DNA of 48,817 bases, taken from the IMG/VR virus record IMGVR_UViG_3300029922_000006; one strand, 5' to 3'. Origin of the DNA: a virus. Taxonomy: Duplodnaviria; Heunggongvirae; Uroviricota; Caudoviricetes. How positions within the stretch are numbered: position 1 is the first letter of the stretch; each line of letters starts with the position of its first letter. The notes beneath the pieces are model-generated. The model was not told the DNA's origin. It saw only the letters and a program-made list of their open reading frames with translations, and searched no databases. The translations under genes and the position numbers were made by a program. This document shows positions 1,447 through 34,930 of the stretch, one piece after another.

Positions 1447-1740
1447 ATGAAAACTCATTTACTTAAATTAAAGACCGATCTTAAAGCACTCGCTACCGAA
1501 ATCCGTAGCCTAAAATCGAAACGCAAAGAACTCCGTGGATACGTCCCGGGTCTTGAAAACGCTCAAGAAGCATTCCGTTCCGGCCACATTGCTTACTGCA
1601 TTCTTCGCGGTAAGACACTAGAACAAATCGAACCTAAACTTAGACATCCTGACAGCTGGCACCATGCCCGTGTTCGTAAGGAAGCTAATCGTATTGTTCA
1701 ATCTATTTTGGAGGTAGAGAATGCAGCCCCAAAGTCATAA
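1447..1740 (+). CDS. hypothetical protein
   Basis: GGAG SD upstream; 97 aa with HIAYCILRGKTLEQIE. Confidence 0.7.
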   Translation: MKTHLLKLKTDLKALATEIRSLKSKRKELRGYVPGLENAQEAFRSGHIAYCILRGKTLEQIEPKLRHPDSWHHARVRKEANRIVQSILEVENAAPKS

Positions 1741-2020
1741 ACTGTACATCCTCGTCGATAAGAAACTCACTCCTGCGCAGCGAGCTGTTCAAGCATGCCA
1801 TGCTGGAATTGACTTCGCGAAGAAGTTTCCCGAATGGCAACACCAGTCGGTTATCTTACTCGGGGTCGACGGAGAGATAGAGCTCATCGATAAAGCCGCT
1901 GAATTTGTTTTTGCGGGCCTACCGTATGCAACGTTTATTGAGAGCTATTGGAATAACCGCGTCACTGCAGTCGCCGTTCACGGAGCGGACGAAATGCTGA
2001 AGGATTTAGAGCTGTTATGA
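1721..2020 (+). CDS. peptidyl-tRNA hydrolase Pth2-like protein
   Basis: KLYILV..L...QRAVQACHA, VILL and TAVA match the Pth2 family pattern; GGAGG SD. Confidence 0.7.
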   Translation: MQPQSHKLYILVDKKLTPAQRAVQACHAGIDFAKKFPEWQHQSVILLGVDGEIELIDKAAEFVFAGLPYATFIESYWNNRVTAVAVHGADEMLKDLELL

Positions 2021-2090
2021 AAATACTAAACTTTAAATAGAAAACACCGATAGGTAATAACAACATGTTAATGCATCTAGTATAATGTAA

Positions 2091-2266
2091 GTGCACGGCT
2101 GCGTAAACAGAGGGTGACTTCGGATAGAGGATTGTAAAGAGTTTTACGGCGTTCTTTCCTTGATTTGTTGCCCACCTGCTAGTACCTATGCCGGAGTCGT
2201 TGGTCTCACAGCCTCGCTCGCAAGAGACGGCGGTTACAAAGTGTGGGAATAATCTAGCCCGTGCAC
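2091..2266 (+). ncRNA. putative structured non-coding RNA
   Basis: TATAAT at 2081-2086; closing stem GTGCACGGCT/AGCC(C)GTGCAC; internal helices; GCAA tetraloop; T-rich tail. Confidence 0.5.
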
Positions 2267-2282: not shown

Positions 2283-2451
2283 GCCCGAGTATGCTCAGTG
2301 GTAGAGTGCTCAACCTGGGGAAACCGTTACCAGCCGTTTGATCAACGGTACATACGGGATCTCGGCTAAGAAAGCAGTCATGACGATGATTGTAAGTAAG
2401 AGTATAAAAGGAGTTGAGAGGTCGGTGGTTCGAATCCATCCTCGGGTACCA
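2283..2451 (+). tRNA. tRNA-like gene with 98-nt insertion in the anticodon loop (possibly intron-containing tRNA-Pro GGG)
   Basis: Acceptor GCCCGAG/CTCGGGT + A-CCA; D arm GCTC-AGTGGTA-GAGT; anticodon stem CTCAAC/GTTGAG; T arm GGTGG-TTCGAAT-CCATC. Confidence 0.75.
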
Positions 2452-2456
2452 ATTAC

Positions 2457-2531
2457 GCTCCATTAGCTCAGCGGTAGAGCAAGTCCCTCTAAAAGACCTG
2501 GTCGTGGGTTCGATCCCCTCATGGAGCACCA
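2457..2531 (+). tRNA. tRNA with CUA anticodon (amber suppressor type)
   Basis: 75-nt cloverleaf: GCTCCAT/ATGGAGC, A73, CCA; anticodon loop CT-CTA-AA (CTA at 2489-2491); stem mismatches present. Confidence 0.8.
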
Positions 2532-2893: not shown

Positions 2894-2955
2894 ACCCTAA
2901 TTGGGTTTGGAAGGGCCCTTGACTTTCTTCCTTAATCAGTATTTCTTTCTCTTGC

Positions 2956-2995
2956 CGAGCGCGTCTACGCGCTCGTGTGCGTGAAATCACGCACG
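2956..2995. repeat. two abutting perfect inverted repeats
   Basis: CGAGCGCGT-CT-ACGCGCTCG (2956-2975) and GTGCGTGA-AA-TCACGCAC (2977-2994). Confidence 0.85.
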
Positions 2996-3143
2996 TAGAG
3001 TAAGACTAATTTTCTCTGGTTAGATAGGTTAGCAAGGGGTAAATTCTTATCTCTTATGGTACCCGCGAGCAACAGCTTTTTAACTATGGTTTAAAAATAA
3101 ATATGAACCCCACTTTGGAAACCCCTAACAGTATAATCGCAAC

Positions 3144-10980: not shown

Positions 10981-11454
10981 ATGGCGAAGAGATGTAATAC
11001 TTGTAACATAGAGCAAGACCAATCACAATTCTATAAAGATTCAAGTTTGCCTAGTGGATTAAAACACAAGTGCAAAACTTGCACTCGTTCATATAATTTA
11101 GAGATCTATAAGTCTACTGGATCCAAGCGTAAAGCTCAAACAACTGCTTGGAAGTTACGTAACCCCGATTACGTAAAAAATAATAGTCTAGAAACTAAGT
11201 ATGGCGTAACTCTTGAGACCTATAAGACCATGTTTGAAAAGCAAGACGGTAAATGTGCCATCTGCAGCAAGCCTCAGAATGAGAATTTAAAGGGTCGTAT
11301 GTTAGCATTAGATCATAATCATGCTAATGGACAAGTCCGTGGTCTTCTTTGTTATAAGTGTAATATGGCTATTGGTCTACTAAAAGACAGTAAATCCAAT
11401 GCTTTAAAACTGGTTGAATACCTGGAGCTTTATGAAAAAACGCCCGCCGTATAA
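10981..11454 (+). CDS. endonuclease VII-family HNH endonuclease
   Basis: CNTC/CKTC; KYGVT; CAIC; LDHNHANGQVRGLLC. Confidence 0.88.
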   Translation: MAKRCNTCNIEQDQSQFYKDSSLPSGLKHKCKTCTRSYNLEIYKSTGSKRKAQTTAWKLRNPDYVKNNSLETKYGVTLETYKTMFEKQDGKCAICSKPQNENLKGRMLALDHNHANGQVRGLLCYKCNMAIGLLKDSKSNALKLVEYLELYEKTPAV

Positions 11455-11977
11455 CCAGGAAGCCGCTATACGAGGTGCTCTAAGAAGAGCATTCAGTCGT
11501 TCGCCTATAGTTCAAGAGGTTATGGCTGCTTCAAGAAGACAAGTGCCAAGGTTTAACAAAGATGGTAGTCGCCATAAAAAAGACTGGGTACAACGTCAAT
11601 GTCAAGTCTGTGATGAGTGGGTCTCTACATCCAAGATGGCAGTAGACCACAAGATTCCTGTTATCTCTGTAGATCATGGCAAGCAGTCGTGGGACGAATT
11701 TATAGCTCGCCTATGGTGTGACAAGAGCAATCTACAGCGCATTTGTGATCCTTGCCACGACAAGAAGACCCAAGAAGAACGTATTACTAGATTGCTTATA
11801 AAGTATACTGCAGAGCTGGACAACATCGAGGCTCGCTGGCCAATCCTCATCATAGAACCTAAGGCCCTATTAAAGCAGCTCTCTAAATTCACGGCCAAGA
11901 AGAAGACTATCGGTTTAGAATCCGTTGTAGAAAGAGCCATGAAATTGAAAGATGTTTTGAAACCCAAAAGGAGCTAA
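11432..11977 (+). CDS. HNH nuclease (IRGALRRAFSR type)
   Basis: CQVC, VDHKIPV, NLQRIC..CH..KT; start at ATG 11432 after GGAG. Confidence 0.75.
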   Translation: MKKRPPYNQEAAIRGALRRAFSRSPIVQEVMAASRRQVPRFNKDGSRHKKDWVQRQCQVCDEWVSTSKMAVDHKIPVISVDHGKQSWDEFIARLWCDKSNLQRICDPCHDKKTQEERITRLLIKYTAELDNIEARWPILIIEPKALLKQLSKFTAKKKTIGLESVVERAMKLKDVLKPKRS

Positions 11978-33273: not shown

Positions 33274-34930
33274 ACCTTTAGAAATTGATGGTGTTCTTGG
33301 TTCTGAGTTAAGAGATACTCAAGGCGAAATGCTGTCAGTTGAGGGTGCTGATATATCCGAATTAGAAGCTGGTCGTGGTCGCTGGAATGATAATCATGGT
33401 AAGGGCTTTTTTAATTCTATTGGTCGTATCACAAAAGCTAAAAAAATCTTTAAAAAAGAAGATTGCGAAGACGATAGGCAGAGATATTATTGGGATAAAA
33501 TCAAAGCACCATATATCTATGGGGCTGGATATCTTTATGATGATGACGACCATCCTAATGCCAAAGCCGCTGCTGCCATCTTACGTAACATCCATAAAGC
33601 AGATACACCGTTACAGTTGAAAGCTTCAGTTGAGGGTGGCGTCGTAGCGCGCGGCATTAAAGATCCATCTCTTTTAGCTAGAACAAAAATCCATTCCTGC
33701 GCTTTAACTTTTACTCCCGCGAATAATGCCACATTAATTGAACCCATGAGTCTTAAGAAGTCTCAGTATGATGAGATTGCCGATATGCTTCTAATCAAAT
33801 CGGTAATGCACTTGGCTCAGACAAACGTTCCATCGTTCCGTCATATTGCTAGAGATGCATCTGCTACTAAGGTACAGAACAATCTCGCCAAACTAGTTGA
33901 TTTAATGAAGGAATTAGGAATTGAAGGCGAGATCACCATACCTTCAAAAGAATCTATTCTTCGTAAAGCTTTAGAGCAAAAGATACAGTCGAATCTTGAA
34001 GAGATTCACGCTAAGATGGCTTCTCTAAAAAAAGAAGAACTAGAAAAAGCGAAGATGAAGAATGCTATGACTGCTGCCGGTATAGGCGCAGCAATGGCTC
34101 TAGCTCCATCGATGGTTTCTTCGAGTGAACCAAAGGTTCAAAAACAACCTGTCGTACAGCAGCAAGTTAATCCTAAGGTTGAATTAAACGATGTGTTAGC
34201 TAATACCAGCAAGCAGTATCCATTGCTTGGTGCTATTGCTAACGTTGAATCCTCAAATGGAAAGAACCTTCAGCATAAGACAATGAACGAAGGTATTCAC
34301 AAGGGAATGACTGCTGGTGGACCTTACGGAATGATGCCGCACTCTGCTGCATTTATCCTTCAAAAAGATCCAGAACTTGCTAAAAAGTACCCTAAGCTTT
34401 TAGCTTCGGCAAAAGATGTTAGCAAGCATCATAAAGATTTTACAGACGCCTTTAATAACGATCCGCAAGCCGCAGCCGACTTTGCAGTCGCCTTTTATAA
34501 GAGAAACAAAGGGAAGACTAAGTCCGACCAACAGTTGACTTACAGTTGGCTGAACGGTTTGAAGGGTTCGTGGGACAAATATAAAGAGGGCGGCGAACAA
34601 GCTCTCGATGAGCATCCTTATGTTCAGAATGTTATGAAGGAATATAGCAAACTGAAGCCTAAGAAAGCCGAGAAACCTAAGCAAGATAAGCCACTTAAGA
34701 AGGCTATGACTGCTGGGTATGGCGGTGGTGGAAGCCCTGGCGCTTTATCAGGTGGTGGAGTACTCCAAAGCGAAGCCTTGGACGAAGGACGGTCGAAACT
34801 AAAATATATTAGTTGCGATAATTGTGGAAAAGAGCAAGTCTACTCGAAACACCAGGTAAAATGTAGGGAGTGTGGTCACGGTATGAGTTTTGAAAAGCTC
34901 TATGGTGCCATGCGCGGTAACAAGAAGTAA
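33260..34930 (+). CDS. prohead protease polyprotein (protease + transglycosylase-like domain + capsid-arm mimic + Zn finger)
   Basis: RDTQGE, NDNH, ASVEG, CALTFTPAN (HK97-type protease pattern); AIANVESS..GPYGMMP; CDNC/CREC. Confidence 0.8.
   Translation: MKKRKPLEIDGVLGSELRDTQGEMLSVEGADISELEAGRGRWNDNHGKGFFNSIGRITKAKKIFKKEDCEDDRQRYYWDKIKAPYIYGAGYLYDDDDHPNAKAAAAILRNIHKADTPLQLKASVEGGVVARGIKDPSLLARTKIHSCALTFTPANNATLIEPMSLKKSQYDEIADMLLIKSVMHLAQTNVPSFRHIARDASATKVQNNLAKLVDLMKELGIEGEITIPSKESILRKALEQKIQSNLEEIHAKMASLKKEELEKAKMKNAMTAAGIGAAMALAPSMVSSSEPKVQKQPVVQQQVNPKVELNDVLANTSKQYPLLGAIANVESSNGKNLQHKTMNEGIHKGMTAGGPYGMMPHSAAFILQKDPELAKKYPKLLASAKDVSKHHKDFTDAFNNDPQAAADFAVAFYKRNKGKTKSDQQLTYSWLNGLKGSWDKYKEGGEQALDEHPYVQNVMKEYSKLKPKKAEKPKQDKPLKKAMTAGYGGGGSPGALSGGGVLQSEALDEGRSKLKYISCDNCGKEQVYSKHQVKCRECGHGMSFEKLYGAMRGNKK

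Follow-up and report, generated by a model that had tools for sequence, protein, structure and literature searches.

The window considered here is a 48,817-nucleotide stretch of the Caudoviricetes record IMGVR_UViG_3300029922_000006 (174,974 bases, rated 100% complete), which was found in DNA runs of a peat metagenome. Towards its beginning, an endolysin gene, a 97-aa gene, a Pth2-like (peptidyl-tRNA hydrolase-like) gene, a tRNA-bodied RNA gene of 169 nt, a tRNA with a CUA anticodon and a dUTPase gene follow one another. The tRNA-bodied gene, referred to below as the element, occupies 2283..2451 on the + strand and is defined by its sequence, its fold and two homologues in related phages (L002:3967-4137 and L021:1793-1962). 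The Pth2-like gene (1721..2020, +) matches phrog_3668 (E 2.5e-5); its feature score is 0.93, PF01981 being present on 18-25% of cluster members, and the gene itself has no Pfam match at E 0.01. A second gene, a clear PTH2, lies at L103:17166-17669, the copy at 1721-2020 being the diverged one, and the genome also encodes peptide deformylase and NAD salvage genes.

Between the Pth2-like gene and the element lies a separate structured RNA of ~176 nt (2091..2266, +), recognizable by its closed ends and an 8-bp pseudoknot. Six distinct copies of this upstream RNA are at hand, in which the pseudoknot is kept with compensatory changes (8/8 pairs in five copies, 7/8 in one); the family occurs in 3 of 21 records searched, all within the subclade of the long forms described below. 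It has no Rfam match, and we take the order of its core helices to resemble group I P3/P7/P8. It has two conserved strands, CGUAAA and UGUAAA, which may be rivals for the same partner. A sigma-70-like promoter (2057..2086, +; TATAAT at 2081-2086, 10/12 matches) precedes it. The promoter search returned 2 sites versus 2.0 expected by chance and is not significant alone; a TATAAT box is found closely upstream of the same RNA in L002, L012, L022 and L023, and the site is likely to be the start of the precursor transcript. The CUA tRNA, taken from the tRNA calls, begins 5 bases past the element (2457..2531, +), and the two are likely to share that precursor. CUA tRNAs are widespread in the clade (30 distinct ones scored) and sometimes paired; TAG is used as a stop in the phage genome (27/200 ORFs) despite the CUA tRNA. 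Further downstream, positions 2909-3004 of the window form a non-coding hairpin block upstream of the dUTPase gene, 77% identical in L002, which is possibly an origin or a regulatory element. As to the host, a phage protein with a FlgM anti-sigma-28 domain (L102:11067-11864; G000 11067-11864, minus strand) hints at a flagellated host, and two genome bins with relatives are titled Bacteroidota, which may reflect mis-binning.

The 5' body of the element (2283..2313, +) consists of the acceptor strand, U8-A9 with an extra U, a D arm with G18G19 and the 5' strand of a 5-bp anticodon stem. The 3' body (2414..2451, +) supplies the other strand of that stem, a 5-nt variable loop, the T arm (2424-2440), the acceptor strand, A73 (2448) and an encoded CCA (2449-2451). 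The 7-bp acceptor stem is formed by 2283-2289 and 2441-2447, the D stem by 2293-2296 and 2304-2307; the one extra base between them is common to all three long copies. Acceptor, D arm, T arm and CCA end are canonical, whereas the usual 5-bp stem with a 7-nt loop and U33 is absent: 100 nt are enclosed and position 33 is C. The original prediction of a complete tRNA body around a 98-nt insert is exact in its coordinates, 98 nt (2315-2412) being enclosed by CTCAAC (2309-2314) and GTTGAG (2413-2418). The 6-bp anticodon stem that it drew is present in the window, but the sixth pair is missing in both relatives; since only five of the six pairs are shared with them, the comparable insert is the 100-nt domain 2314..2413 (+), here called the payload.

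Fold comparison predicts the payload to be a three-way junction, and it matches none of the 4227 Rfam families searched. Its first bases, 2314-2316, pair with 2410-2412 and lengthen the anticodon helix. Arm A (2318..2363, +; helices 2-4) is a long interrupted helix whose tip, U-GAUC-purine at 2339-2344, occurs in all three copies; arm B (2365..2403, +; helices 5-6) carries a GACG tip at 2382-2385 and aligns ungapped over the three copies. Three hairpins had been proposed for the insert, of which CCGTT-TGATC-AACGG and CAGTCAT-GACG-ATGATTG are the conserved arm tips; the CTGG..CCAG hairpin can be drawn in the window copy but is not conserved, its strand pairing instead with 2355-2363 to form the long arm. 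Pair 3:70 is C:G, confirming that the G3:U70 pair typical of tmRNA is lacking; tmRNA (RF00023) was rejected on this pair, on the presence of a D stem and on scores of 5.8-8.2 bits versus a cut-off of 47.

In its default mode ARAGORN misses the element, and with introns allowed it reports all three long copies as intron-bearing tRNA-Pro. An Rfam search gives no tRNA (RF00005) match to the element at E values up to 10. The element as a whole folds only modestly better than shuffled sequence (z = -1.64; 13/200 shuffles as good), the insert arm alone clearly so (z = -2.76; 2/200); the relatives' arms alone reach z = -1.24 (22/200) and -3.24 (1/200), that of L002 being the least clean fold of the three. 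Contigs from three of four DNA runs span the element with zero differences (two of these runs are possible sources of the window, X14 not being marked as one), and the fourth covers just its 3' end; no assembly joint or deletion at the element is seen in the contigs of the four runs.

The two homologues were reached by different routes, L002 (3967-4137) via a neighbour protein and L021 (1793-1962) via a linked methyltransferase, whose alignment retrieved 77 viral and 2 genome loci, one of the latter repeating L002's contig. Among the three long copies the bodies are 87-94% identical (65/69, 61/69 and 60/69 pairwise) and the inserts 56-62% (55/99, 62/100 and 56/100). Insert length stays within 100-102 nt, and one three-way-junction fold is present in all three: a 3-bp extension of the anticodon helix, arm A, arm B and a 6-base A-rich linker. 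In the homologues, 13 of the 25 insert pairs are altered on both sides. Paired cells amount to 88% in the drawn structure versus 31-47% in slid controls, and the covariation score is 0.68 versus 0.32 in shuffles, with 0/500 shuffles reaching the observed value; the signal is strong, but as the structure was drawn from the same three sequences, these counts are thin, biased towards it and not to be read as a probability. An internal loop of arm B is formed by an invariant AGUA (2395-2398) facing RAA (2370-2372), which may represent a bulged-G/S-turn motif. Position 33 and a base close to the insert's 3' end vary together (C-G, U-A, U-A), the behaviour expected of a helix and not of a U-turn; G36 is accounted for by its invariant pairing at the foot of arm A. 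L002 has U73 and no encoded CCA. The element is a real, selected structure.

Searches for further long copies covered several collections. Model R1 finds neither a free-standing insert nor a fourth long copy in 48 relative records, and further pattern scans of viral contigs and metagenomes yield no fourth copy either: a metagenome scan returned 27 loci without adding a copy, two of them being known ones again; pattern scans gave 0 matches, 1 (L002's contig) and 15, including two upstream RNAs (L012, L016); another gave 3, comprising the two known copies and one YrlA-like RNA. A protein search run alongside the pattern scans returned no relative of the protein concerned, the 97-aa neighbour protein has no usable Atlas match, and the annotated phages searched contain only T-arm matches to ordinary tRNAs. 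No peptide is shared by the three inserts.

Shorter genes of similar design are found in sister phages. A tRNA-shaped, non-canonical gene lies between endolysin and dUTPase in 21 of the 77 methyltransferase-linked viral loci: two long forms, one with a D-loop insert (L022) and 18 short forms (13 distinct; 11 detected by ARAGORN, 1 by a T-arm pattern and 1 by model R2). None of the 21 has a 5-bp/7-nt anticodon arm. In the short forms, the arm at the anticodon position measures 21-37 nt, several arms being sealed by a tetraloop and others ending in an A-rich loop. Twelve of the 13 encode CCA, the first acceptor pairs and N73 vary, G18G19 is missing in 10/13, and an extended -10 box, TGGTATAAT, stands directly upstream in 10/13, which gives these genes their own promoter. 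The L022 gene combines a 32-base anticodon arm with its long D-loop insert; the insert (gene at L022:6872-7019) carries a GUAC-tipped hairpin, and L175, L183 and L194 have D-loop inserts as well. Six short forms (L030, L034, L036, L042, L047, L048) have an A-rich loop, C(G/U/C)UAAAA, in common; it is similar to a loop of the upstream RNA and to the A-rich strand at the foot of arm B.

In the methyltransferase tree (68 rows; 12 near-duplicates and 2 gene-less loci left out; the label of L045 predates the finding of its element), the long forms group with L022 (92/84) inside a well-supported clade. The short forms fall into the neighbouring clade (88/98), which also contains rows devoid of the element. 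Long forms lie downstream of the Pth2-like gene and short forms upstream of it. Model R1 scores the short forms at 33-52 bits, a range overlapping ordinary tRNAs (up to 49 bits). The case for kinship of the long with the short forms is built on neighbourhood and T stem, and convergence instead of homology may account for the likeness. Because many clade members lack the element, it must be dispensable.

The T stem is the most telling feature of the body. GGTGG/CCATC (G49-C65, G50.U64 and U51-A63 in the 3' body, 2414..2451) occurs in all three long forms and in 9 of 13 short ones, including 8 of the 11 that ARAGORN found regardless of the T stem; the remaining 4/13 depart from it, and L022, the nearest relative in the tree, has a different T stem with a penalty of +0.5. 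Only 1 of 128 other tRNAs parsed in the same loci carries it, a control that overstates its rarity, as a virus-wide scan finds this T stem to be common in initiator tRNAs. The tabulated additive EF-Tu penalty of its three pairs is +2.0 kcal/mol (Table 2, PMC3239215), stems with G49-C65/G50.U64 being described there as binding tighter than the additive sum; the other tRNAs have a median penalty of 0.0, with 1/122 as high as +2.0. Weak EF-Tu T stems are described as a property of initiator tRNAs in the same paper (PMC3239215). A scan of viral contigs for the T arm (118 loci, 45 of 64 parts covered) shows it together with CCA in at least 91 distinct viral RNAs, of which 46 are canonical (36 with CAU), 29 flagged as non-canonical and 16 unparsed (12 showing CAU). 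Inspection by eye confirms an altered anticodon arm in ~22 of these 29, including 4 short forms already counted. These ~22 arm-altered RNAs (L165-L282) suggest a widespread class definable by an initiator-type T stem. Not being unique to the family, the signature is weaker as proof of descent and stronger as a functional clue: it is predicted to mark RNAs that are not delivered by EF-Tu.

The insert could be an unusual small intron that is removed after base 37 to leave a phage tRNA-Pro; a tRNA-Pro with a CT-GGG-GA loop was one of the two options of the original prediction. In favour of it, positions 34-36 read UGG, UGG and CGG, all proline triplets that differ only at the wobble base, ARAGORN makes its intron-bearing tRNA-Pro call, and the phage genome has five ordinary tRNA calls, none of them for proline. 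Enumeration of 16 cut registers per copy (48 over the three copies) weighs against it. With the shared 5-bp stem, L002 (UGG) and L021 (CGG) acquire a canonical loop with U33 if cut after base 37; in the window, position 33 is a C paired with a compensating G. None of the registers combines a 5-bp stem and a U33 loop in every copy, and the CT-GGG-GA loop depends on a 6-bp stem that neither relative has. The tRNA-Pro features G72, A73 and G37 occur in 1/3, 2/3 and 1/3 of the long copies, respectively, and the G36 of the triplets is explained by the arm A pair. Neither loci nor pattern and model scans contain an uninterrupted version of the tRNA body.

Known intron types do not account for the domain either. 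In group I introns, the 5' exon ends in U and the intron in G; such ends are found in 0/16 registers of the window and in 1/48 overall, in a single copy and on an unpaired stem. The group I core (P3-P7, RF00028) does not match the element, whose conserved fold is a nested three-way junction. The window's CTGGGGAAACC bears a resemblance to group I P4-P6, a reading dropped because L002 lacks that sequence. The one group I signal in the whole genome, a sub-threshold match elsewhere in the window (16.7 bits, 33893-34011), lies within a 556-aa ORF and is probably due to chance. Group II introns (domain V/VI) were discarded, no match occurring among the 4227 Rfam families. The archaeal bulge-helix-bulge follows a 3-4-3 pattern with 3-base bulges, and it was rejected for the element, where the junction is a 3-bp extension with a 1-nt bulge, the 3' bulge having 1 base and not 3. 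A phage-encoded RNA ligase or endonuclease had also been considered: RtcB, an Rnl2-type ligase and a splicing endonuclease are absent from the phage genome in searches whose controls worked, and no RNA ligase is found among 175 Pfam and 30 PHROG queries (ORFs of <90 aa and a few border-crossing ORFs left out); the search of the phage genome for a T4-type RNA ligase, run without a positive control, carries no weight. RtcB could come from the host, hosts often carrying it (10/14 control genomes), and one of three relatives tested has it as well. Unexplained tRNA introns are reported for Lak phages (PMC6784885). All in all the insert is poorly supported as an intron, and its removal to give tRNA-Pro is unlikely; if it is spliced after all, it would represent a new intron class.

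About equally improbable is that the tRNA shape serves mainly as a processing signal, by which RNase P would free the upstream RNA and help to mature the CUA tRNA, with the payload secondary. The arrangement would suit this, as all three long copies, none with its own promoter, start 10-16 bases past the upstream RNA, and L002 has no encoded CCA. The upstream RNA, however, also occurs without the element (L012, L023), and in L022 it follows the tRNA-like gene and is preceded by its own promoter. The short forms come first after their own promoter, and cutting needs no 100-base domain held by compensatory changes.

The upstream RNA, present with every long form (3/3), is a possible partner of the element. 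A more elaborate version of splicing builds on it: the domain, counted as 93-95 bases, would be a new class of small phage tRNA intron, distinct from group I, group II and bulge-helix-bulge types and excised after base 37 to give tRNA-Pro, possibly aided in trans by the 176-nt upstream RNA with its group-I-like helix order. Two RNAs would then make up a trans-acting splicing system, a version that we consider very unlikely. Duplexes of the insert with the upstream RNA are matched or exceeded by 163, 164 and 197 of 200 shuffles, and cognate combinations are no better than non-cognate ones.

An antisense role appears more remote still. The C4 RNA of P1/P7 is an RNase P-processed, tRNA-shaped phage antisense RNA, so that a precedent exists, and the GAUC tip of arm A is self-complementary; the arm tips would then pair with phage or host mRNAs. 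In the phage genome, the only one compared, 9-mers of the insert match 193 times outside it, within the range of 200 shuffles (mean 134, maximum 226), no match reaches 13, and the repeated words sit in paired, non-conserved stretches; the conserved loops comprise just 4-6 bases, and there is no Rfam C4 match. Equally far-fetched are the possibilities that a tRNA relic is decaying around a neutral insertion or that the assembly is at fault, to which the missing CCA of L002 and the absence of the element from many relatives might point, but three diverged copies hold length and fold and the DNA contigs run through the element unchanged.

The explanation we favour, with somewhat better than even confidence, is that the element is an unspliced, non-decoding, tRNA-bodied RNA with a selected payload, which would be matured like a tRNA, kept off EF-Tu and probably used as a decoy or docking RNA. 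Of the two possibilities raised originally, it corresponds to the tRNA-scaffolded functional RNA, which gains support from a fold that three phages keep and from candidate homologues with short non-decoding arms. The parts of this explanation differ in strength: that the RNA is unspliced and non-decoding is probable, that the payload is a selected ligand rather less so, and that its target is a host anti-phage effector directed at tRNA is a tentative suggestion. It draws on the anatomy of the element, a fold kept under drift, the lack of a common splice register, a series of arms of 21-112 bases on like bodies, freely varying acceptor identity and a common T stem. Several observations run counter to it: there are three long copies only, L002 has U73 and no CCA, proline triplets stand at 34-36, and the element is dispensable.

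The element could act in the following manner: Transcription from the promoter at 2057-2086 would produce a precursor containing the upstream RNA, the element and the CUA tRNA. Host RNase P together with 3' trimming and CCA enzymes may convert it into a stable 169-base RNA, for which M. smegmatis YrlA provides a precedent as regards processing (PMC4201824). This RNA would not be charged by one fixed synthetase; its initiator-type T stem would bind EF-Tu weakly, and no codon would be paired. The folded payload may then present a surface, which likely binds a protein, and thereby serve as a decoy or docking RNA. Our guess is that a host tRNA-binding or tRNA-attacking protein is soaked up during infection by an abundant RNA that leaves decoding undisturbed; the adjoining Pth2-like gene and CUA tRNA lend some help to the idea of tRNA-directed defence. 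Selection retains the acceptor helix, the CCA and the weak-EF-Tu T stem; anticodon and amino-acid identity are not kept, nor is the elbow in the short forms. The payload, a compact fold without an Rfam match, can be seen as a natural counterpart of the laboratory tRNA-scaffold trick.

Several known RNAs invite comparison. YrlA (RF02553) shares with the element the D arm, T arm and acceptor stem of a tRNA and a long helix in place of the anticodon, and in M. smegmatis that helix prevents neither cleavage by RNase P nor CCA addition (PMC4201824). YrlA is circularly permuted and binds Ro60, whereas the element keeps the order of a tRNA; identity was rejected at 17 bits versus 69, the match lying on the junction, and with the GNCGAAN0-1G motif in 0/3 copies. 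Ro60/TROVE is absent from the phage genome and from 10 of 11 relatives. A phage YrlA-like RNA (L100) shares the T arm of the element, having been picked by a pattern that holds half of it; in this unrelated phage, the YrlA-like RNA (L100:2450-2630; 41 bits) comes with a repeated leader motif and a downstream ORF resembling Ro60 by eye. The "enigmatic" tRNA introns of Lak megaphages are likewise unclassified inserts in the anticodon loop for which splicing is not demonstrated, as far as the text of PMC6784885 covers them; as a rule their sequence is the same from one genome to the next, and alleles without the intron exist (PMC6784885), whereas the insert of the element drifts and no such allele has been found. 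Bacterial initiator tRNA-fMet resembles the element in its variable loop and T arm (36 of 46 canonical viral matches have CAU) and in its weak EF-Tu T stem; the element differs in a closed 1:72 pair, an elongator-type D stem and the lack of a CAU loop. The insert domain is not described in the open literature found, including the available portions of PMC4201824, PMC6784885, PMC3014915, PMC10690425, PMC12880540, PMC7609411, PMC5389517 and PMC3239215; it could be among the tabulated candidates of PMC10690425 or the tabulated Lak introns.

The closest counterparts in form are the stable RNAs of T4 and T5. T5 RNA1 and RNA2 (NC_005859 misc_RNA T5s03, T5s06) are annotated as "tRNA-like stable RNA with unknown functions", and no role is known for the T4 and T5 stable RNAs according to PMC3014915. 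Like the element, these RNAs and T4 RNA C and RNA D (NC_000866 T4s001, T4s002) are phage genes (119-144 nt) located among tRNAs. T5 RNA1 and RNA2 fold like the element into acceptor, D-like and T arms with a long non-decoding arm at the anticodon position, and T4 RNA C combines a T arm with inner arms of considerable length. There is no sequence kinship, models R1 and R2 matching only ordinary tRNAs of T4 and T5, and the T4/T5 RNAs differ in their T stems and in having, in their predicted folds, single interrupted hairpins in place of a two-arm junction. The element fits the descriptive class of phage tRNA-like stable RNAs, which is not a sequence family, and like them it is predicted to be a stable, unspliced RNA. 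Whereas the T4 and T5 members have been known for decades without a function, the present clade offers a natural series of arms on one body type, ranging from sealed hairpins of 21 bases to a branched arm of 110, and it turns a vague class into one with testable predictions: processing by RNase P, no binding to EF-Tu and a swappable payload.
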